Below the pieces are notes generated by a model, which saw nothing but the letters and a program-made list of their open reading frames with translations, searched no databases and was not told where the DNA came from. DNA of 18,718 nt from the UHGV virus genome UHGV-0133874; one strand, 5' to 3'. This document shows, one piece after another, positions 4,170-15,197 of the stretch (within the stretch, counting starts at the first letter, position 1; each line of letters starts with the position of its first letter). The stretch is from a virus. Position numbers and translations under genes: made by a program.

Positions 4170-5023
4170 GCACCATCCTGAAATGGGCGGGAAATAAAAC
4201 CGCCATTATGTCCGAACTGAAAAAACATCTTCCTGCTGGCCCGCGACTGGTTGAACCTTTCGCGGGTTCCTGTGCTGTGATGATGGAGACGGATTACCCC
4301 AGCTATCTTGTTGCGGATATTAATCCTGATTTAATCAACCTCTATAAAAAGGTTGCTGCTGATTGCAAGGCGTTTATATCTCGTGCCAGAGCTTTATTTG
4401 AGGAAGCAAACAGGGATGTGGCTTATTACAACATAAGGCAGGAGTTTAATTACTCCACTGAAATTACTGATTTCATGAAAGCGGTATATTTCCTGTATCT
4501 CAATCGTCATGGTTACCGTGGGTTATGTCGCTATAACAAGAGCGGGCATTTCAACATTCCGTACGGTAATTATAAAAATCCGTATTTCCCTGAAAAAGAA
4601 ATTCGCGCATTTGCAGAGAAAGCCCAGCGGGCAACGTTTATCTGCGCCAGCTTTGATGAAACGCTGGCGATGCTGCAGGTGGGGGATGTGGTGTATTGCG
4701 ATCCGCCGTATGACGGTACGTTTTCCGGCTATCACACTGATGGTTTCACTGAAGATGACCAGTATCACCTGGCATCCGTTCTTGAACATCGATCATCAGA
4801 AGGATATCCGGTCATTGTTTCTAACAGTGACACATCCCTGATCCGTTCGCTGTATCGCAATTTTACTCACCACTACATCAAGGCAAAACGCAGCATCGGT
4901 GTGGCAGCTGGTGAGAGTAAATCTGCAACAGAAATCATCGCTGTTTCCGGGCCGCGCTGCTGGGTGGGATTTGATCCTTCGCGTGGCGTGGATAGTTCAG
5001 CCGTGTACGGAGTACGTGCATGA
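4166..5023 (+). CDS. dam: DNA adenine methyltransferase, Dam family (probably GATC-specific, N6-adenine)
   Basis: 285-aa product aligns along its length with E. coli Dam as recalled: [15 protein letters not shown] (AdoMet motif), [19 protein letters not shown] catalytic motif; GGAGG 6 nt upstream of ATG 4166. Confidence 0.9.
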
Positions 5024-7434
5024 GTCATGCCGATATGAACAACTGCTGCGGCTTTAACGAGGCTGCCGCAGCGTTCTCATGGAACAGCCCGAAAAAGGCC
5101 ATTAACCCTTATCTGGACCCGGCGGAAGTTGCGCCGGTTTCTGCGCTTTCAAACCTGATCACTCTGTACGCTGCCGATAACGAGCAGGAACAACTGCGCC
5201 GCGAGGCACTGAGTGATCAGGTCTGGGAGCGTTATTTTTTTAATGAATCACGTGATCCTGTCCAGCGCGAAATGGAGCAGGATAAGCTCATTAGCCGGGC
5301 AAAGCTGGCGCATGAGCAGCAGCGTTTTAATCCGGATATGGTCATTCTGGCGGACGTCAACGCCCAGCCTTCCCATATCAGCAAGCCGCTGATGCAACGT
5401 ATTGAATACTTCAGCAGCCTGTGCAGGCCAAAGGCTTATTCCCGCTATTTACGTGAGACAATTAAGCCATGTCTGGAACGACTGGAGCATGTACGCGACA
5501 GCCAGCTATCTGCATCTTTTCGTTTTATGGCAAGCCATGAAGGGCTGGACGGCCTGCTTATCCTGCCTGAAATGAGTCAGGATCAGGTGAAGCGCCTGTC
5601 TACCCTTGTCGCTGCGCATATGAGCATGTGCCTTGATGCCGCTTGTGGTGATTTGTATGCCACCGATGACGTTAAGCCAGAAGAAATCCGCAAAACATGG
5701 GAAAAGGTGGCAGCGGAAACCCTGCGTCTGGATGTTATTCCGCCTGCGTTTGAGCAACTCCGTCGGAAAAGAAACCGCCGTAAACCCGTGCCCTATGAAC
5801 TCATTCCGGGTTCGCTGGCGCGTATGTTGTGTGCCGACTGGTGGTATCGGAAATTATGGAAGATGCGTTGCGAATGGCGGGAAGAGCAGTTGCGTGCTGT
5901 CTGCTTGGTCAGCAAAAAAGCATCTCCCTATGTCAGCTATGAAGCCGTGATGCATAAACGTGAGCAGCGCCGTAAGTCGCTGGAGTTTTTCCGTTCTCAT
6001 GAACTGGTGAACGAAGACGGCGACACGCTGGACATGGAGGATGTGGTAAACGCCAGCAGCAGCAACCCGGCGCATCGCCGCAACGAGATGATGGCCTGTG
6101 TTAAAGGCTTGGAGCTTATCGCGGAAATGCGTGGTGACTGCGCCGTTTTCTACACCATCACCTGTCCGTCACGTTTCCATTCCACGCTAAATAACGGCAG
6201 GCCAAACCCGACCTGGACCAACGCGACAGTAAGACAAAGCAGCGATTATCTGGTCGGCATGTTTGCTGCATTTCGTAAGGCTATGCACAAAGCCGGGTTG
6301 CGCTGGTATGGCGTGCGGGTGGCTGAGCCGCATCATGACGGCACAGTTCACTGGCACCTGTTGTGTTTCATGCGCAAAAAAGACCGCCGCGCCATTACTG
6401 CATTGTTGCGTAAGTTTGCCATCCGTGAAGACCGCGAGGAGCTGGGCAATAACACGGGGCCACGCTTTAAGTCTGAGCTGATAAACCCGCGCAAAGGAAC
6501 GCCGACAAGCTACATTGCGAAATATATCAGTAAGAATATTGACGGGCGTGGTCTGGCTGGCGAGATCAGTAAGGAAACGGGTAAATCCCTGCGTGATAAC
6601 GCTGAATACGTTAATGCCTGGGCGTCTCTGCATCGTGTTCAGCAATTCCGCTTCTTTGGCATTCCGGGGCGTCAGGCTTACCGTGAACTGCGATTGCTGG
6701 CTGGTCAGGCGGCAAGGCAACAGGGTGACAAAAAAGCAGGTGCGCCGGTACTGGATAACCCGCGCCTTGATGCCATCCTGGCTGCTGCTGATGCTGGTTG
6801 TTTTGCCACTTACATCATGAAGCAGGGCGGCGTACTGGTTCCCCGCAAATATCACCTCATCAGAACCGCTTATGAAATAAACGAAGAGCCAACCGCCTAT
6901 GGCGATCACGGTATTCGTATTTATGGCATCTGGTCACCCATTGCAGAGGGCAAGATCTGCACTCATGCAGTGAAGTGGAAAATGGTTCGTAAGGCCGTTG
7001 ACGTTCAGGAGGCGGCAGCCGACCAGGGCGCTTGCGCCCCTTGGACTCGTGGCAATAACTGTCCCCTTGCTGAAAATTTGTACCAACAAGGGAAAGACAA
7101 ATCAGCTGATGGGGATACCAGAACGGATATCACCCGTATGGATGACAAGGAGTTGCACGATTACCTGCACAGTATGAACAAAAAAGAACGCCGGGAACTG
7201 GCTGCAAGGTTACGCCTGGTGAAACCGAAACGGCGTAGAGACTACAAACAGCGAATTACAGACCATCAACGACAGCAGCTCGTCTATGAACTGAAGTCCA
7301 GAGGATTTGATGGCAGCGAGAAAGAGGTCGATTTACTCCTTCGCGGCGGCAGTATTCCGTCAGGAGCAGGCCTGCGTATCTTCTATCGGAACCAGCGTTT
7401 GCAGGAAGATGATAAGTGGCGGGATCTGTATTAA
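5020..7434 (+). CDS. A: P2 gpA-type rolling-circle replication initiator (nicking endonuclease)
   Basis: 804 aa; HxH-type metal-binding motif ([10 protein letters not shown]) and tyrosine-containing active-site segment ([11 protein letters not shown]); start overlaps the dam stop (ATGA). Confidence 0.9.
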
Positions 7435-7503
7435 TTACGCGGGTTAACAATTCGTGCTCTTAATAATACCAGGCATATCAGGCTGATGAACGTAAAAAAA
7501 CGT

Positions 7504-7546
7504 TTTACATCAGTAAGATTATTATATACTGTAAATATAAACAGTG
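7504..7546 (+). promoter_or_regulatory. SOS-regulated promoter with LexA operator (CTGTAAATATAAACAG, 7529-7544)
   Basis: Near-consensus LexA box CTGT-N8-ACAG with AT-rich centre and TA/TG flanks, overlapping a -10-like TATACT (7525-7530), with -35-like TTTACA at 7504-7509. Confidence 0.7.
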
Positions 7547-7587
7547 GTTATGTGTACAGTATTGCTTGTGGTGTCATAGGAGGAAAA

Positions 7588-7776
7588 ATGCAGGACTATT
7601 TTTTGGAGTCTTTGAAGCTCCAGCGCATTGATTTTTTTCTTAAGCTTGTAGCGGCTAGTGAGTGTAGTGATGAAGAGAAGGGGCTGGCTCTGCAGTGGGT
7701 TTCTGAATTGACTGATGAACTCATGGCAAAAATCAGAAGCCACGAATACAACCGCTCAATGGATGTCATCAGCTGA
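7588..7776 (+). CDS. 62-aa ORF, first gene after the LexA box; possibly the N-terminal part of a disrupted tum-like antirepressor gene
   Basis: ATG at 7588 with AGGAGG 4 nt upstream; frame ends 10 nt before the DinI-like ORF, which is in the +1 frame. Confidence 0.5.
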   Translation: MQDYFLESLKLQRIDFFLKLVAASECSDEEKGLALQWVSELTDELMAKIRSHEYNRSMDVIS

Positions 7777-7786
7777 GGTGACTTTT

Positions 7787-8020
7787 ATGCGCATTGAAAT
7801 AATGATCGATAAAGAGCAGAAAATTAGCCAGTCTACCCTGGACGCCCTTGAATCCGAGCTTTACCGCAATCTGCGCCCCCTGTATCCCAAAACGGTAATT
7901 CGTATCCGCAAAGGTAGCTCTAACGGTGTGGAACTGACCGGACTGCAACTGGACGAAGAAAGAAAACAAGTGATGAAAATTATGCAGAAGGTGTGGGAAG
8001 ACGACAGCTGGCTGCATTAA
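7787..8020 (+). CDS. DinI-family protein (DinI / 186 Tum C-terminal-domain-like)
   Basis: 77 aa, MRIEIMIDKEQK...LDALESEL...KVWEDDSWLH matches E. coli DinI as recalled (MRIEVTIAK...IDALAGEL...ETWESADDWF); GAGGTG 6 nt upstream of the ATG. Confidence 0.75.
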   Translation: MRIEIMIDKEQKISQSTLDALESELYRNLRPLYPKTVIRIRKGSSNGVELTGLQLDEERKQVMKIMQKVWEDDSWLH

Positions 8021-8525
8021 GAAACGTTGCTGGCGTCTGAACTTGCTTCTGGCGTCAGCAAGGTTGAACAACGAGCTGTGCGAGGCGTTAGCCATCTGAT
8101 CAAAAGACATCAAATATCATATTGTATATCGTGGTCAAACGCTGGAAACTATCATTCCCGGTCAGAGGGGCTTCTTTCAATGTCCAAAAGAGTGAGATAG
8201 AGGATACAGGATGGGAAGAGCTTATGATGATTGTTCTTGGATTGACTTGGAATATTTGATGTCCATTATCTAATGGACTTGGTCTTGATAGTTATCACGA
8301 AAGAGGAAGCCAACGTCATGTATTTGAAGAGTATCTCTTACCTTTTGATTAATTATTGTCCAAGTTTTTCAAAAGCTTCTTATCTGGCGGTCGATACATG
8401 ATTTACTGTTGGATATGGTATTTAAAATTAATCTTTACACTGTGGTATATGCAGAATAGGATATTATCAATACAATCAAACCGTTTTCATACGGTTGTTA
8501 ATATTGCAATGTTATAGGTAATGTC

Positions 8526-9644
8526 ATGTATCTTTTCAAGTATTACCGTCCGGACTTCTTCTTCGAGAAAGCTATTCGTTATAATGAATTATATTTTTCC
8601 GCTCCTGCGCAATTGAATGATCCTAATGATCTCAATATAGATTATCGTTTTGATAATAAATTGAAATTATGGGATATTTTATTGCGTTCTCCTTGCGATA
8701 AATCCTATGAAAATTTGAGTCACATATTAGATTTGAGTAATTTGAAGATACATAAGGGATTGAATCGTATTTTTAGAGGAAAAAAAATAAAAAGTAGCAT
8801 TGAGTCATTAGATAGCCTGTTTGACTCACACGTTGATGAGATACGTAAGATCATAAATGATGGTTTACTACCTATCAATGTGATTAATTCCGCTATTTAT
8901 GGGAATATTCCTGAACCACGCCAATTTTTGGTCTCACTTTGCGAGAACAGTATCAAAGAAAGGTTGTATAGGAAAATAGTTCCTGCAGTATTCAGTGTGT
9001 CATTTTCAGCTAATGCGTTAGATCGTATGATGTGGGCGCATTATGCTGCAGGCTTTAGTGGTTGTGTTGTGATTTATGAAACGCAGGATTTTAATATTAA
9101 TGGCGTGCCACATCCTGGAATGAAGCTAAGAGAAAATTTATTTTCATCAGATAAATTTAATTTTCCAGTTAAGCAAATAAAATATAGTAATCAGGCTAAA
9201 GAGGTTTCACTTCTAGACCCAAGCGCAAATGTTGCAGAGTTATTTTTAACTAAAAATAGATTTTGGAGATATGAAGCTGAATATCGAATGTTTATTCCAG
9301 AGGCAAATGCAGGAATAGGGAGTGAGCGGCATGTTCAAAGACGCGTAAATCGAAATATTGGACATATTTTTCATCATGATGCTAATGTTGTTAAAGGGAT
9401 CATTTTTGGTCCTAGAATGTGTGAAATGAAAAAAGAAAGCATATGGAATTGTATCAAGTCAAATATGGAGAATTCAAATTCAACAATATGTTATTTTTTT
9501 GACTCTGAGTTATCAGCATCAGGAAAGATTACTATTTCAAAAGGGCAACGAGCGGAAAAAATGAAAAATTTCCCTTTGTTCAGGAACAAGTTAAGTCAGA
9601 CGGAAATGGCTAAAGTTTTGAAGGAAATTGGCATTACGAACTAA
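8526..9644 (+). CDS. DUF2971-like protein (372 aa), function unknown; candidate accessory/defence gene
   Basis: N-terminal pattern FKYYRPDFF...NELYFSAPAQLNDPND and central MWAHYAAGFSGCVVIYE resemble what I recall of the DUF2971 signature; gene is markedly AT-rich versus the phage backbone and sits alone between tum and cos. Confidence 0.6.
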   Translation: MYLFKYYRPDFFFEKAIRYNELYFSAPAQLNDPNDLNIDYRFDNKLKLWDILLRSPCDKSYENLSHILDLSNLKIHKGLNRIFRGKKIKSSIESLDSLFDSHVDEIRKIINDGLLPINVINSAIYGNIPEPRQFLVSLCENSIKERLYRKIVPAVFSVSFSANALDRMMWAHYAAGFSGCVVIYETQDFNINGVPHPGMKLRENLFSSDKFNFPVKQIKYSNQAKEVSLLDPSANVAELFLTKNRFWRYEAEYRMFIPEANAGIGSERHVQRRVNRNIGHIFHHDANVVKGIIFGPRMCEMKKESIWNCIKSNMENSNSTICYFFDSELSASGKITISKGQRAEKMKNFPLFRNKLSQTEMAKVLKEIGITN

Positions 9645-9710
9645 CCTAACAACAGTGCATGCCTATGCTGCCTGAATTTGCATGACCGTTTGAGGATCGT
9701 TTTTGCTAAG

Positions 9711-9735
9711 GCCCGCCAGAACTGGCGGGCTTTTG
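9711..9735 (+). terminator. Rho-independent terminator after the DUF2971-like gene
   Basis: GCCCGCCAG-aa-CTGGCGGGC perfect 9-bp GC-rich stem followed by TTTTG. Confidence 0.7.
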
Positions 9736-9779
9736 CGTGGATCAGGCACCTGCATGAAAACCACTACACAAAGCGGGCA

Positions 9780-9798
9780 GGCGTGGCGGGGATACGAG
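9780..9798. other. Candidate cos cohesive-end sequence (GGCGTGGCGGGGATACGAG)
   Basis: First 13 nt match the 186/P2 cohesive-end sequence as I recall it (186 GGCGTGGCGGGGAAAGCAT); lies between the replication/tum arm and the portal gene, where cos sits in 186. Confidence 0.35.
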
Positions 9799-9900
9799 CG
9801 CGCGCTAACTCATAAATCCTAGATTATTAGTGGATTTATCTCATTGAAATGTGCACTATTCCCAGCATTGAGTTGTACCAGATGTCTTTATGGAGGGACT

Positions 9901-11667
9901 GTGGCTTTTGTAACTGATATTCGGCTTGAAGATAATGCTATTGCTGCACCTGCGACAGCACAGGTTATGGCTCAGAGGCTAGGATCTGTATTACGTAAGA
10001 GATATGAAGAATTCATCCATAAAAGAGAGTGTGCACCAGGCCAAGCAGACTATGATGTAAAAATGGCTAGCAGGGCTTTAGCTGCATTCACTATGTATCA
10101 GTTAGGATGTGTGGATGATAAGTATGCAGGGGAGTCTGTATGTGATAGTAGTGAAGATGGTGGTATAGATGGAATAGCAATCAACCATAACGAAAAAATC
10201 GTTGTTGTTGTTCAATCAAAATTTCACCAATCGGGAAACGGCACTTGGACAAGAGCCGATTTTATGTGTTTTAAGGATGCTTGTGAGAAGCTACAAAGTG
10301 AAAGATACGAATTATTTGATTCCATATTGCAAAATAAAAGCGGGGAAATAAGTGCGGCTTTAAGTAGTTTTGAATACAAGTTCATCTTTGCGATGGCGCA
10401 TACAGGTAAAAAAGGTGCTGCAGAGGAAATATTAAATGATATGCGGGAATGGCAATATCAATTAAACGCTGCAGCTTTTACACCTGAGGATGAGCCTAAA
10501 GAGAACTGGGGATTTCAGGTTCATTTAATATCCTCTGAAGATATGATGCATTGGTTACAGAATGGCTCTCGAAATCAAATTGATCTTAACAGGGTTGAAA
10601 TTGAGCGTTTTGGATTTTTGAATGAACCATATCAAGCTTTTTACGGGGCTATTAGTGGTGATCAAGTTGCAGAATGGTGGGAAGAGCATGGTGCTCGATT
10701 ATTTACAAAAAACATAAGGAATATGCTTGGTAAAACAGAAGTGAATGAGGAAATAAAAAAGACAGCTATAGATAATCCTGATATGTTTTGGTTTTATAAT
10801 AATGGGATTACTGTACTGGTTAAGGAAGTTGTTCCTCATAGACGAAACGCAGCTCCTAATATAGAGAGAGGGATTTTTGATTTTCGTGATGTAAGTGTCA
10901 TTAATGGTGCACAAACAGTCAGTAGTATTGGCGCATGTAAAGATGCACTTGGTGAAAACATATATAGACTCAAAGTGCCAGCTAGATTCATTGTTATAGA
11001 TGATGATACTGATAATTTAACTGCAAATGCAATTACAAAAGCTAACAATTTCCAAAATAGAGTATTGGGAAGAGATTTTGCATCGCAGCAGGCAGATCAA
11101 CATAGATTGGCAAGGGAGTTAGTGCTTGAAGGATATCAATATCAGTTACTAAGAACAGATGAAGATCATTCACAGACAAATACGAAAGTCATTGACTTGG
11201 ATGAGGCGCTCAATGCACTCGCATGTTTAAGTAAAAATAATACGGTTGTATCGACACTAAAATCAAATCGCGGTAGGTTTTTTGAAAATTTTGAAGGCTC
11301 TCTATATAAAACTATTTTCAATCCAAGATTAAGTGGTTTAAAACTTATCAATACTGTTCTACATTTTAGAGTTATAGATAAGTTGATCGGTAAAACATTA
11401 CTATCAGTAGATAAAACGACCCATAGTCGCAAGCATTTAATTATTACGCATGGTAATAGATACTATGCGTCTGTACTATTGAGCAACGTTTCTGGGATAC
11501 ATAATAGCTCAGAAATTCTTGTTCCAGATGAAAAAAATCTTTCCGAAGAATTAAGTGCATTAATTCAACGTGCTGAAGAGTACATTGAAGATAATTACCC
11601 GAATGCCTATCCGGCAAGATTTTTTGCAAATCCAACGAAAATACAAGAGTTATACGATAATGTTTAA
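9901..11667 (+). CDS. Protein with N-terminal Mrr-like PD-(D/E)xK nuclease motif and AIPR-like C-terminal region (abortive-infection-type); candidate anti-phage effector
   Basis: Open frame 9844-11667 (607 aa from TTG 9844; 588 aa from GTG 9901 with GGAGGG 3 nt upstream; ATG at 9967 also in frame). DGGIDGIAI...KIVVVVQSKF resembles the Mrr catalytic D...(Q/E)xK motif; WFYNNGITVL and INGAQT resemble AIPR-family motifs as I recall them; AT-rich. Confidence 0.75.
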   Translation: MAFVTDIRLEDNAIAAPATAQVMAQRLGSVLRKRYEEFIHKRECAPGQADYDVKMASRALAAFTMYQLGCVDDKYAGESVCDSSEDGGIDGIAINHNEKIVVVVQSKFHQSGNGTWTRADFMCFKDACEKLQSERYELFDSILQNKSGEISAALSSFEYKFIFAMAHTGKKGAAEEILNDMREWQYQLNAAAFTPEDEPKENWGFQVHLISSEDMMHWLQNGSRNQIDLNRVEIERFGFLNEPYQAFYGAISGDQVAEWWEEHGARLFTKNIRNMLGKTEVNEEIKKTAIDNPDMFWFYNNGITVLVKEVVPHRRNAAPNIERGIFDFRDVSVINGAQTVSSIGACKDALGENIYRLKVPARFIVIDDDTDNLTANAITKANNFQNRVLGRDFASQQADQHRLARELVLEGYQYQLLRTDEDHSQTNTKVIDLDEALNALACLSKNNTVVSTLKSNRGRFFENFEGSLYKTIFNPRLSGLKLINTVLHFRVIDKLIGKTLLSVDKTTHSRKHLIITHGNRYYASVLLSNVSGIHNSSEILVPDEKNLSEELSALIQRAEEYIEDNYPNAYPARFFANPTKIQELYDNV

Positions 11668-11670
11668 ACT

Positions 11671-11697
11671 AAAGGGAGGTTGCCTCCCTTTTTTTTA
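11671..11697. terminator. Bidirectional rho-independent terminator between the AIPR-like gene (+) and portal gene Q (-)
   Basis: AAAGGGAGG-ttg-CCTCCCTTT hairpin flanked by a T-run on the plus strand and an A/T-rich tract on the minus strand. Confidence 0.7.
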
Positions 11698-11698
11698 A

Positions 11699-12727
11699 TT
11701 AGAAATGGTATTCTTGGAATTCAATAACACCTTCTTCTATGAAATTGTTTATTTCTTGTAATCTTTTTTGCAATGGCAATAATTCATTACGTACAAATAC
11801 TTTACTCGCCTTCTCTACATCTCCAAAGCCCCCAACATTATTAGGCATTATCCCCATCATTTGCGGCGGCACACGGTGTGCCGCCATCATGTCGTCCCGA
11901 CTCACGTTCTTGATATTCAGAAACTCATCCTTCGCCGCGACTTCTGACAACGGGATAATCTGAAGCCCGTCCTTTTTGCCGTTAGGAGAGTACATAAACA
12001 GGTTGCGGAAGTTGCCTGGCCCTTTGGCGCTTTTCATTGCGTTGCGGAGGTTGTTCACATCTTCTTGGTTCTGCGCGGCATCGGTCATGTACATGATGAA
12101 ACCTGCATGGCTGCCGTTGATGTAATACTTACGGCGGAACAGTGTGGCGGACTCGTTGAGCAGGGCTGACGGGATGGCAGAAAGATAACCTGGCAGGCCG
12201 TAGATCTCCTGGTTGATGTCCGGTTCCATCAGATGAAAAATGCTGCCTTTCGTGAACTGATACGGCTGGGCTGTCATACCGTATTGCACAAACCAGTAGG
12301 TATCCAGGTCTAATCCGCGTCGGGTGTATTTTGCCAAAGCTGGCTCAAGGGCGATAACTTCACCAAAGCGGTTCGTGCGTTTCTCCAGGTAGGCGTTACC
12401 AAATACCAGATAGTCCTGCACAAAACGCGAAAAAGCCTGCTGGCTAAGCAGCGGATGAGGGATATAGGTACTGGTCAGAATGTTGCACTTTACTGCAATC
12501 GGGGAACTGTGATGCACGGCGGCGCGGAAGGTGCGCGCCAGTCCATTAAAGCTGACGGGCGGCTCATACCAGCGATCCATCTGTACGCATTCCACATAGT
12601 CCAGCAGTTCGCGGCGGTCCAGCACGGGGATGGGATCACCAAAGCTGAAAGCCTCAGCCGTTGGGCCGTTGCTTGGTTTTGTGTCGTGATCAACTGTTAC
12701 CTGCTTGGTGTTTTTACGTTTGCTCAT
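11699..12727 (-). CDS. Q: Portal protein (P2 gpQ / 186 W family)
   Basis: 342 aa, position immediately downstream of the terminase genes on the minus strand; P2 Q is about the same length. Confidence 0.9.
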   Translation of the reverse strand: MSKRKNTKQVTVDHDTKPSNGPTAEAFSFGDPIPVLDRRELLDYVECVQMDRWYEPPVSFNGLARTFRAAVHHSSPIAVKCNILTSTYIPHPLLSQQAFSRFVQDYLVFGNAYLEKRTNRFGEVIALEPALAKYTRRGLDLDTYWFVQYGMTAQPYQFTKGSIFHLMEPDINQEIYGLPGYLSAIPSALLNESATLFRRKYYINGSHAGFIMYMTDAAQNQEDVNNLRNAMKSAKGPGNFRNLFMYSPNGKKDGLQIIPLSEVAAKDEFLNIKNVSRDDMMAAHRVPPQMMGIMPNNVGGFGDVEKASKVFVRNELLPLQKRLQEINNFIEEGVIEFQEYHF

Positions 12728-13431
12728 TCTGCCAGTTCCTTGCTAGCGAGAGGCCATTCGCACATAAACAGCATTTTCCAGTCCTTTTCTGATAATTCTT
12801 TTTTCATATCGTTCAGCCAGTTATCAGTAAACAACATTGCTCCAGATGCTGCTGCGTCATCTGCGGTGAACACCATGCTGGTTACGCTGTTGTTTCTGCA
12901 TAGCTTTTTATATTCCTGCCGTGCCTCTGGGTTAGGGCTGGGAGTGGTGTAGTAGGTGGCGTGGTAGTGTGCGTGCATAGAAATCCCTTTAGCGATGGCA
13001 ATCATATTTCTCGGTGATTCACTCCAGGCATACTCTGACACGTAAACATTTCCACTGAGTGCGGAGGTGAGACTGCTGAGGTCGGTAAAATAAATTACTG
13101 CACCATTCGGAAGCTCCAGATGACTTTTGCCTGATTTTATTTTTCCAGTGTGCGTATAAGCTGCGGCCTGGCTTAAGAATGCTGATACACAGGCTTTGAT
13201 TGCCTGCGCAGATGCTGTGCTGCAGCAGAGGAAAATCTGGTTACGCCCGGTATGCAGTGCATCGTTCAGGGCTTCATAGGAAAAAAAGAAATCCGCGCCT
13301 GCCTGGCGCATTTTTGTGAGTACACGGTTTCTACTCTTTGGGCCAGTGTTCCACTCATACTGGTAAGCAAAGAAAAAGCTATCCACCGGAAGTCCCGCGA
13401 TAGTCATGAGGTTAGTTGGGATTGGGGGCAT
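12724..13431 (-). CDS. Terminase large-subunit ATPase-domain paralog (235 aa), lacking the N-terminal and nuclease domains, with degenerate Walker motifs
   Basis: Aligns by eye to residues ~140-380 of the adjacent P protein (ALNDALHTGRNQIFL vs ALIDALLTGRNQIFL; ELPNGAVIYF vs VLPNGATLYF; TYYTTPS vs TYFSTPS; MLFMCEW vs NLLMCEF); Walker A RQIGAT is RQAGAD and Walker B LYLDEY is VYVSEY; start/stop overlaps with P (TGATG) and Q (ATGA). Confidence 0.7.
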   Translation of the reverse strand: MPPIPTNLMTIAGLPVDSFFFAYQYEWNTGPKSRNRVLTKMRQAGADFFFSYEALNDALHTGRNQIFLCCSTASAQAIKACVSAFLSQAAAYTHTGKIKSGKSHLELPNGAVIYFTDLSSLTSALSGNVYVSEYAWSESPRNMIAIAKGISMHAHYHATYYTTPSPNPEARQEYKKLCRNNSVTSMVFTADDAAASGAMLFTDNWLNDMKKELSEKDWKMLFMCEWPLASKELAE

Positions 13432-15197
13432 CAAAAAATCTCCACAATATTGCTGGTATTGGCGGATTCGCCCTGCAGCGGTTCGTTAAACAGTGCGTGC
13501 ATCGTTGCCCAGGCCAGATCGGCGTGGCTGGCTTCTTCGCTGCGGCTGGCTTCATAGGTTGGGCGGTTGCCGCTCGCGGTGGTGGCGCGACGGATTGCCA
13601 TGAATGACTGCGCTATGTCGGTGTGTCCGGCGTCAAACTCCAGACGGCGGTGGCTGATAATGTCGTAGGCCTTGAGTACCAGGGCGTTTTTAACATTGGG
13701 GTTATAGACAAACTCCCGGACGGCTGGAAAAAACGCTTTCACGTTCTCGTAAACCCCGTGGCCGACACCTGTCGAGTCGATGCCGATGTAGGTCACGTTG
13801 TACTGCTCGGTCAGTTTTTTGATGGCGTCAGCCTGGGCGCGGAAGTCCATCCCACGCCACTGGTGACGCTCAAGAATGCGGAACTTACCACCAGGCACGG
13901 CTGGCGGTGCCACCACTACGCATCCGGCGCTGTCGCCGTTTTGCGTACCTTTTGCCGGGTCATAACCGATCCACACTTCGCGCCAGCCAAACGGGCGCAG
14001 AGCCAGTGCATGAAAGTCGGTCCAGACTTCCCAGCTGTCCACCATGCACGCCTGCAGCTCGCTGAGCGGGAACACGGACGCGAGATCGTCCACAAACTCG
14101 CACATCAGCAGGTTCTGGTATTCGTCCGGGCTGTACTCCATGCGCAACTGGTCAAGGTCGAACAGGTTACAGCCGCCGCGCACCGCATCTTCCACGGTGA
14201 CTATCTGGCGGTATTGCCCGTCTGCGCACAGCAGGCCGGGGGCCAGATTGCTGTGGGACAGGTCGATGTCCACCTTGTCGGCCTTGTTGCGCCCACGGTT
14301 GAACAGCGCACCGGACCAGAACGGATAAGCACTGTGTGTCAGGCTGGATGGCGTGGAAAAATAGGTTTGTCGCCATTTTTTGTGAATAGCCATACCGGAA
14401 GCCACTTTGCGCAGCTCCTGGAATTTCGGTATCCAGAAATATTCATCCAGATACAGGTTGCCGTGATAACTCTGGGCCGTGCGGGCATTGGTGCCGAGGA
14501 AGTAAAGCGTGGCTCCGTTAGGAAGCACCATCGGATCGCCTTTCAGCTCCACCTCGACTTCTTTGGCGAAGTCTATGATGTACTGCTTAAAGACGTGAGC
14601 CTGTGCCTTACTGGCAGAAAGGAAAATCTGGTTACGTCCGGTAAGCAGGGCGTCAATCAGGGCTTCACGGGCAAAGTAAAAGGTCGCGCCGATCTGGCGT
14701 GACTTCAGCAGGTTGCGGATGCGGTTGGTTTTTCCGGCTTCCCACCAGTGGCGCTGGTAGTTGAACATGGAGGAATGGAAAATTTCTTCCAGCTTCTCAA
14801 TCTGTTCATCGGTGAAAACATTCTTTTCCGGCTGACGGCGCGGGCCTTTGTTGCGGTTGGCGACGTTAGGGTTTAAGTCGGCTTCGTTACCGCCATTGTT
14901 AAACTTGCCGATCCGCGCGTGGCGCTCCGACTGGCGCGCCAGCAGGTCAATTTCTTTGAAATCTTTCCCTTCTTTGTGCTCCTTCATAATGAGCTGGCAG
15001 TAGCGTGCGGCGGTGGTGAGCTGCATCTGATCCAGCGGCCCATAGTCACCCCACTTGTCGCGTTTTTTCCAGCTGTGAACGGTTGCAACTTTCTCGCCCA
15101 GCATTTCAGCAATGCGGGCTACGCGGTATCCCTGAAAGTACAGCAGCATGGCCTGCCGACGGGGATCGAGATCTGCGGGTGTCAGTGTGGTGTTCAT
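13431..15197 (-). CDS. P: Terminase large subunit (P2 gpP family), ATPase plus nuclease domains
   Basis: 588 aa; Walker A-like KSRQIGAT, Walker B LYLDEYFW, C-terminal nuclease-type segment IGIDSTGVGHGVYE; P2 P is ~590 aa. Confidence 0.9.
   Translation of the reverse strand: MNTTLTPADLDPRRQAMLLYFQGYRVARIAEMLGEKVATVHSWKKRDKWGDYGPLDQMQLTTAARYCQLIMKEHKEGKDFKEIDLLARQSERHARIGKFNNGGNEADLNPNVANRNKGPRRQPEKNVFTDEQIEKLEEIFHSSMFNYQRHWWEAGKTNRIRNLLKSRQIGATFYFAREALIDALLTGRNQIFLSASKAQAHVFKQYIIDFAKEVEVELKGDPMVLPNGATLYFLGTNARTAQSYHGNLYLDEYFWIPKFQELRKVASGMAIHKKWRQTYFSTPSSLTHSAYPFWSGALFNRGRNKADKVDIDLSHSNLAPGLLCADGQYRQIVTVEDAVRGGCNLFDLDQLRMEYSPDEYQNLLMCEFVDDLASVFPLSELQACMVDSWEVWTDFHALALRPFGWREVWIGYDPAKGTQNGDSAGCVVVAPPAVPGGKFRILERHQWRGMDFRAQADAIKKLTEQYNVTYIGIDSTGVGHGVYENVKAFFPAVREFVYNPNVKNALVLKAYDIISHRRLEFDAGHTDIAQSFMAIRRATTASGNRPTYEASRSEEASHADLAWATMHALFNEPLQGESANTSNIVEIF

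Follow-up and report, generated by a model that had tools for sequence, protein, structure and literature searches.

A solitary DUF2971 gene with a predicted ADP-ribosyltransferase fold as cos-proximal cargo of a P2/186-like Escherichia coli prophage

What is the role of a single AT-rich gene that lies beside the cohesive-end site (cos) of a P2-like prophage? This question is raised by the UHGV virus genome UHGV-0133874, a stretch of 18,718 nucleotides that is called the window in the following text and that represents a P2/186-like prophage of Escherichia coli; its gene order was read in 5' to 3' direction with Pfam and RefSeq annotation. The gene codes for a protein of 372 amino acids (aa) that belongs to the family DUF2971. 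The family has already been flagged for defence, the hotspot that harbours the gene is published and the protein is catalogued, and no novel type of system is described here. Our present results add the invariance of an ExE motif among relatives of 17-29% identity, the ratio of nonsynonymous to synonymous substitution rates (dN/dS, 0.07-0.20), the lack of a conserved partner, independent assortment from the neighbouring cargo and the presence of defence genes in the neighbourhood of homologues. Anti-phage defence is the best-supported role of the gene. We propose that it probably encodes a cytoplasmic, stand-alone enzyme of ADP-ribosyltransferase (ART) fold, an abortive-infection-type hotspot gene whose product would ADP-ribosylate its target, most likely nucleic acid.

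The gene (8526-9644, plus strand) is an uninterrupted reading frame starting with ATG. Its GC content is 33.5% (28.7% at third codon positions, GC3), compared with 52.9% (GC3 56.8%) in replication gene A (gpA) and 56.5% in the terminase gene P, and the 505 bp in front of it (8021-8525) have 37.8% GC and contain no conserved open reading frame (ORF). RefSeq names the product WP_021542067.1, "DUF2971 domain-containing protein", and the identical region is found in several complete E. coli chromosomes. Homology with the backbone of the P2-like Escherichia phage 500465-1 stops at position 8092 and restarts at 9654 (block 9654-9805), and the limits of the cargo cassette were therefore set at 8093-9653. 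Since the hairpin terminator behind the gene and cos are both situated inside the block shared with this phage, they are parts of the conserved backbone and not cargo. In phage 500465-1 itself the gpA-side slot is empty, with 5 bp (L017, 3112-3118) in place of the 1.56-kb cassette, and a TIR-domain gene is carried on the portal side of cos. The entire cassette is common to a Citrobacter P2-like prophage (L014), with 71% nucleotide identity. A segment of 113-121 bp of the upstream spacer (8221-8341 by alignment, 8229-8341 by BLAST) is missing from the commoner E. coli alleles L003 and L004; in view of partial homology with the cassette of Citrobacter, the spacer of the window seems to be the ancestral form, from which the other E. 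coli alleles differ by a deletion. No convincing repeats flank the cassette boundaries.

A previous reading of the window, made from the letters only (the sequence-only reading), had described an AT-rich gene of 372 aa as lone accessory cargo between a tum module and cos, preceded by about 500 bp of AT-rich non-coding DNA and followed by a strong terminator. The gene is indeed intact and AT-rich, the cassette occupies the variable slot in which P2 carries old and tin and is accessory cargo, not core machinery, and the tum module is recognizable by a perfect LexA box in front of a DinI-like gene pair. The upstream DNA has the described composition and lacks a conserved ORF, but its first ~70 bp (8021-8092) are phage backbone. 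Likewise, the hairpin followed by TTTTG is present but belongs to the backbone; it was not among the sites listed by a simple terminator scan. The cos site was also correctly placed, between the DUF2971 gene and an AIPR-like gene that begins at 9844. The cos sequence agrees with the annotated 19-nt cohesive end of phage 186 at 15 of 19 positions, the first 13 being identical, and with that of P2 at 14 of 19, and it is the sole such site in the window.

The match to DUF2971 (Pfam PF11185, gathering cutoff 22 bits) is marginal for the 372-aa protein taken alone (22.4 bits, aa 169-255) and robust for its clade, all 40 of 40 members of which match the Pfam model (best E 1e-8). Hidden Markov models (HMMs) of the PADLOC candidate PDC-S31 yield 3.1e-23 over aa 3-312, with four of the five PDC-S31 models matching, and they too are matched by 40 of 40 clade members (best 4e-27); phrog_1762, of unknown function, is matched with 5e-29. 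The DUF2971-like character that the sequence-only reading had recognized is supported by Pfam, PDC-S31 and phrog_1762. NCBIfam gave no match, and no match to a housekeeping family was found. An exhaustive profile search retrieved 6,222 cluster representatives at E≤1e-3 and just 21 at E≤1e-30, so the form of ~370 aa is a small clade within a very large family. Its distribution is rare and patchy, with 7 loci among 185,579 species-representative genomes, and the clade is virtually absent from 50,697 deposited phage genomes and from PLSDB plasmids. Plasmids frequently carry other DUF2971 proteins, and hundreds of plasmids of Klebsiella, E. coli and Enterobacter have members of the family. The cassette was found in 27 of 1,249 complete E. 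coli genomes (those matching any part of the 8030-9840 query).

In the sequence-only reading DUF2971 was taken for a family without assigned biochemical function; this is outdated. A DUF2971 protein of 316 aa, Aristaios, encoded by the Lactococcus plasmid pUCCL641_199, has been validated as a single-gene abortive-infection system (Grafakou et al. 2024, PMC11381338), and later work reports a block of phage transcription and of protein production by it (PMC13064643, PMC12967558). A survey from 2025 placed DUF2971 in the ART superfamily, with profile similarity to DarT, AbiGi and Tox-ART-HYD1 and with sequence links to DarT, AbiGi and scabin (PMC12522546). According to the same survey, the motif-I histidine of DUF2971 is variable, a tyrosine is strictly conserved, the ExE represents motif III, a large helical insert separates core strands, and ~18% of DUF2971 proteins are predicted secreted effectors.

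Does the protein encoded in the window conform to this description? An AlphaFold2 model computed from a 40-sequence alignment is confident (predicted local distance difference test, pLDDT, 92.3; predicted template modelling score, pTM, 0.85) and displays the split beta-sheet of the ART fold. The structural neighbours that rank highest, DarT and Tpt1, are without exception ARTs acting on nucleic acid; yeast Tpt1 (7.0) and KptA (6.3) are among the neighbours, and further ones are the Rhs toxin TreX (6.0) and a Salmonella NAD-binding effector (5.6). A Foldseek search against PDB gave nothing below E 0.07. HMM profiles made from two alignments, A1 of the close clade and A3 of distant relatives that are 17-29% identical, found nothing relevant among PDB sequences and did not reach DarT. 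The assignment to the ART fold, which is based on a predicted model, is consistent and of moderate strength.

Residues invariant in A1 include K5, R8, R18-Y-N-E21 and L-N-D-P-x-D (30-35) in the N-terminal part, and S157-x-S159-F, M-W-A-H-Y (169-173), Y220, K243, W247-x-Y-E250-x-E252-x-R254, H283-H284 and G-x-x-F-G-P (291-296) in the main core. Invariance extends to A3 for N31, D32, W170, Y173, G179, Y220, K243, E250, E252, R254 and G295. H172 varies among relatives, as reported for the motif-I histidine (PMC12522546), and E252 opens a strand (252-258) of the model, as the catalytic glutamate of ARTs does. The invariant residues fit the published description of DUF2971, with its tyrosine, its ExE and its variable histidine. 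For motifs I and II of ARTs (H/R and Y/S-x-S), the candidate residues are K/R5, R8, S157-x-S159, H172, Y173 and Y220.

Two modules are appended to the core. The first is the helical insertion at aa 41-150, whose helices span residues 46-54, 74-83, 92-112 and 131-148 in the model, and the second is the C-terminal module at aa 297-372. Mean pairwise identity amounts to 0.71 in aa 1-40 and 0.45 in aa 151-296, against 0.28 in the insertion and 0.30 in the C-terminal module, so that evolution is 1.5-2.5 times faster in these two modules than in the core. Modelled by itself, the C-terminal module also yields a confident fold. Its α-β-β-β-α topology made it a candidate double-stranded RNA-binding domain, which was rejected because no match to such domains was obtained and the matches found were weak and generic. 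Purifying selection acts on the gene (dN/dS of 0.07-0.20 across genera), and nine of nine orthologues are intact. Direct reading of the sequence reveals no obvious signal peptide or transmembrane segment.

The gene has no conserved partner. The sole sizeable ORF upstream of it has 53 codons (8356-8517), starts with TTG and ends 9 nt before the ATG. It was rejected as a partner or antitoxin, being without counterpart at the homologues from Citrobacter, Salmonella, Yersinia, Enterobacter and Pseudomonas and at an E. coli homologue of 40% identity; it is unconserved outside E. coli and the spacer tolerates an indel of 121 bp. No conserved adjacent ORF occurs in the seven contexts compared, and outside P2-like backbones nothing 5' of the start codon is conserved. 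An RNA element in the leader was rejected as well: there is no Rfam match at E≤1 and there are no tandem repeats, and a small hairpin (8479-8496) is disrupted in other alleles by uncompensated substitutions. The enterobacterial loci therefore possess neither the conserved small partner ORF nor the tandem-repeat RNA by which type II and type III toxin-antitoxin systems are recognized. Only in the Pseudomonas subclade, in two genomes, is an ORF of ~90 aa located directly 5' of the DUF2971 gene (L007, 7575-7844; L020, 7638-7922). Its two versions share 72% aa identity, match nothing in Pfam or PADLOC and travel together with the DUF2971 gene while the flanks differ. Possibly this ORF acts as a partner or a regulator in the Pseudomonas subclade only; nothing equivalent to it exists in the window or at the enterobacterial loci.

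The gene lies in a published hotspot of P2-like phages, which Rousset et al. 2022 (PMC9122126) located beside cos between gpA and gpQ. Occupancy of the hotspot beside cos is variable, as illustrated by the empty slot of phage 500465-1, and the equivalent slot of P2, between gene A and cosR, holds old and tin. The table of Rousset et al. lists WP_021542067 within the entry "hypothetical + DinI + DUF2971 + hypothetical". Homologues reside in several kinds of mobile or variable DNA. One occupies the corresponding slot in a P2-like prophage of Citrobacter, which carries PDC-M03A/B on the other side of cos (L014); others are located in two conjugative elements (ICEs; L015 and L016, the latter adjoining DruK and a giant helicase), in an AlpA-type island that also contains a BnzB-like gene (L008), at a locus of Thorsellia adjoining ThsB and ThsA of Thoeris (L022), and in small chromosomal islets in Pseudomonas. 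In an E. coli lambdoid prophage (L005) a DUF2971 paralogue stands between PDC-S39 and PD-T4-3. Known or candidate defence genes are present within ~3 kb at 7 of 13 loci, counted in a small sample and without a formal background control, and they comprise Thoeris, DruK (Druantia), Shosta, PD-T4-3 together with PDC-S39, PDC-M03, a BnzB-like gene and AbiU; an eighth locus has a weak DitB match only. The association of the clade with defence is guilt by association. It agrees with the anti-phage role that the sequence-only reading had held possible: the homologues have Thoeris, Druantia, Shosta, PD-T4-3 and PDC candidates as neighbours in hotspots of prophages, in ICEs and in islands, and the gene itself occupies the old/tin slot of the gpA-gpQ hotspot.

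The lambdoid prophage L005 deserves separate description. Between its DnaB-type replication genes and the Q antiterminator lies a four-gene defence cluster (5807-11471), composed in this order of PDC-S39 (DUF7380/EMARD_N, 3.9e-265), the DUF2971 paralogue with 40% identity, PD-T4-3 (GIY-YIG, 6.5e-138) and an HNH_2 protein.

On the other side of cos a second cargo cassette carries the AIPR-like gene, which matches Pfam AIPR (7e-35), PADLOC AbiU (7e-25) and phrog_1841 "Abi alpha-like" (8e-173) and has weak similarity to MzaE. Joint action of the two neighbours, considered in the sequence-only reading, is unsupported. The same DUF2971 allele faces four different cargos across cos, namely AIPR in the window and L001, a 557-aa protein in L002, Shosta/DprA-PRTase (ShosT/ShosA) in L003 and a PIN_12 protein in L004, and the same AIPR protein has other upstream genes in the table of Rousset et al. 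This independent assortment of both genes led us to reject a two-gene system.

How does the protein compare with known systems? With Aristaios, the likeness established is shared membership in the Pfam family, and the mode of action is presumably similar. With PDC-S31 it is that of a single-gene candidate defined by its association with defence genes, whose HMMs match here; PDC-S31 is a computational candidate, and our literature search returned no paper naming it. DarT, which ADP-ribosylates thymidine or guanosine in ssDNA, resembles the DUF2971 protein in fold only, at an identity of 8-13%, and with its ~210-220 aa it lacks the helical insertion of ~110 aa as well as the C-terminal module of 75 aa. 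No match to DarT (DUF4433) was obtained in PADLOC, or in Pfam up to E 10, and no DarG macrodomain antitoxin is adjacent, the neighbours being the DinI-like gene and, across cos, AIPR. Tpt1/KptA, an NAD+-dependent RNA 2'-phosphotransferase of the ART superfamily, is a housekeeping or RNA-repair enzyme, unlike hotspot cargo, and the Pfam model Tpt1 is not matched here; the ExE of the DUF2971 protein presumably also sets it apart from the catalytic set of Tpt1. The comparison with CmdTAC/PD-T4-9, a system that ADP-ribosylates mRNA, was negative too, as PDC-S31 models are the only ones matched in PADLOC and partner genes for an antitoxin or a chaperone are absent; PADLOC 2.0 includes models for PD-T4-9. 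The old and tin genes of P2, lysogenic-conversion genes that exclude other phages, share with the DUF2971 gene the same slot and the character of AT-rich cargo beside cos, but they code for unrelated proteins (OLD is an ATPase-nuclease), lie on the opposite strand in P2 and have no homology to it.

From these data a mechanism can be suggested. The conserved core, as predicted, would bind NAD+ and use E250-x-E252 to move ADP-ribose onto a macromolecule required for phage gene expression or replication. This target would most likely be DNA or RNA, as it is for DarT and Tpt1, the nearest structural relatives; alternatively, it could be a component of the expression machinery, which the phenotype of Aristaios would favour. 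The fast-evolving modules of the protein itself (aa 41-150 and aa 297-372) would hold the enzyme inactive until a phage cue is perceived. Self-inhibition of this kind is presumed because no antitoxin or partner gene is present. More specifically, the enterobacterial clade of ~370 aa could represent an antitoxin-free immune protein whose DarT/Tpt1-like core ADP-ribosylates phage or host nucleic acid and whose own modules act as phage sensors and autoinhibitors; we offer this version tentatively, as a possibility that is rather doubtful. If it is true, one polypeptide does what DarTG and CmdTAC need two or three genes for.

An anti-phage ART might also modify protein (RNA polymerase, a translation factor or a protein of the phage are examples), in the manner of classical ADP-ribosylating toxins and of Alt and Mod of phage T4. 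We regard a protein target as unlikely, since the top structural neighbours are nucleic-acid ARTs without exception and DUF2971 has sequence links with DarT, AbiGi and scabin (PMC12522546). Very improbable, in our opinion, is an ART-fold core that hydrolyses NAD+, so that the infected cell is starved and no macromolecule serves as acceptor. Abortive infection often works by depletion of NAD+, and there are NAD+ glycohydrolases among the toxins of ART fold; the conserved ExE and the NAD-pocket-like residues would be needed for such an activity just as well. The gene might even have no part in defence and serve lysogenic conversion or the benefit of the phage, as a host-modulating ART, an anti-defence or counter-satellite factor or a lytic helper induced by the SOS response. 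Some cargo of the P2 hotspot is not defensive, the gene follows a LexA-controlled module in the same orientation and could thus be expressed on induction instead of in the lysogen, and secreted effectors make up ~18% of DUF2971 proteins by prediction (PMC12522546). Such a role in the phage life cycle is nevertheless quite improbable to us: the clade also occurs in ICEs, in non-phage islands and in a plain chromosomal islet, its repeated neighbours are bona fide defence systems, no signal peptide or transmembrane segment is obvious on direct reading, and the family member Aristaios is validated as a defence gene. The marginal Pfam score could be taken as the mark of a catalytically dead or functionless remnant that hitch-hikes in the hotspot. 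This is scarcely credible in the light of dN/dS values of 0.07-0.20 across genera, of copies that are all intact and of putative catalytic residues that stay invariant down to 17% identity.

The proposal of a stand-alone anti-phage ART, most likely directed at nucleic acid, has to be weighed against several observations that speak to the contrary. A competent NAD+ pocket is putative, and the residues named for motifs I and II are candidates only. Neither a DarT nor a CmdT model of PADLOC is matched by the protein. The argument for a nucleic-acid target is solely one of nearest fold in a predicted model, and protein targets were favoured by the authors of the Aristaios work. As for defence, 6 of the 13 homologue loci have no recognizable defence neighbour, DUF2971 has a count of 0 in the cloned-systems file of Rousset et al., and the cargo of the P2 hotspot is partly non-defensive, about 1/4 being partition systems and ~2% a CDT toxin (PMC9122126).

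Table 1. Positions of the DUF2971 cassette, of the parts of its gene and of the surrounding features in the window
Feature	Position	Strand	Remarks
Replication gene A (gpA)	5020-7434		Pfam Phage_GPA 1e-127
186 tum-like (p95/tum-like) SOS module	7529-8020	+	LexA box, 62-aa ORF and DinI-like gene
LexA box CTGTAAATATAAACAG	7529-7544		perfect; only match with 0 mismatches
62-aa ORF	7588-7776	+	LexA box ~45 nt upstream
DinI-like gene	7787-8020	+	Pfam DinI 1e-22; RefSeq annotation
DUF2971 cargo cassette, 1.56 kb	8093-9653	+	upstream leader and one gene; by comparison with phage 500465-1
Upstream region of cassette	8093-8525	+	AT-rich, non-coding, no conserved ORF; promoter-like site inside
Promoter-like site TTTACA-17-TAGGAT	8434-8462	+	consensus match only
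DUF2971 / PDC-S31 gene, 372 aa	8526-9644	+	ATG start, intact; predicted ADP-ribosyltransferase fold
N-terminal core, aa 1-40	8526-8645	+	strand-helix-strand; invariant K5, R8, R18-Y-N-E, L-N-D-P-x-D
Helical insertion, aa 41-150	8646-8975	+	fast-evolving; candidate regulatory/sensor module
Main beta-rich core, aa 151-296	8976-9413	+	SxSF, MWAHY, Y220, K243, WxYExExR, GIIFGP
E250-A-E252 codons (ExE)	9273-9281	+	candidate catalytic motif III
C-terminal alpha-beta3-alpha module, aa 297-372	9414-9641	+	fast-evolving; fold uninformative
Hairpin terminator	9705-9736 (about)	+	backbone context, not cargo; 11-bp GC-rich stem, then TTTTG
cos cohesive-end sequence GGCGTGGCGGGGATACGAG	9780-9798	+	match to annotated 19-nt ends of 186 and P2
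Second cargo cassette, AIPR / AbiU-like gene	cassette 9806-11745; gene 9844-11667 (RefSeq start 9901)	+	
Late genes: portal Q (gpQ); terminase P	11699-12727; 13431-15197	-	opposite strand

The DUF2971 gene lies downstream of the tum-like module and on the same strand (Table 1). A hairpin at ~8027-8062, behind the stop codon of the DinI-like gene, has no T-run, and no canonical terminator is found before the DUF2971 gene. SOS read-through from the LexA-controlled module into the gene is conceivable, and the position behind this module might link its expression to SOS induction. A LexA box directly 5' of the DUF2971 gene was rejected, the only perfect box being the one that precedes the tum-like module.

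Apart from the two cassettes, the late region contains an additional gene for 236 aa (12724-13434, minus strand) between portal gene Q and terminase gene P. It codes for a diverged stand-alone ATPase N-domain of terminase, with 32% identity to aa 142-368 of gpP (E 1e-30) and a match to Pfam Terminase_6N (8e-16) and with no nuclease domain. In the related prophages L002-L004 the gene is missing and Q directly adjoins P. We speculate that its product could be a decoy or a packaging modulator.

For the catalogue of the P2 hotspot the value of our results is that of a prioritised candidate; they introduce no new concept and will not surprise a specialist. DUF2971 is a very large family, for which the literature consulted offers a single functional study, made in Lactococcus, and a single survey by bioinformatics. 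The E. coli prophage copy provides a tractable model of this family in the standard host of phage genetics, as a short single gene in a defined cassette, with a confident structural model and an obvious candidate for a catalytic mutant in its ExE (E250A/E252A). Such a model is suited for asking whether DUF2971 proteins ADP-ribosylate, what their target is and how they are silenced without an antitoxin.

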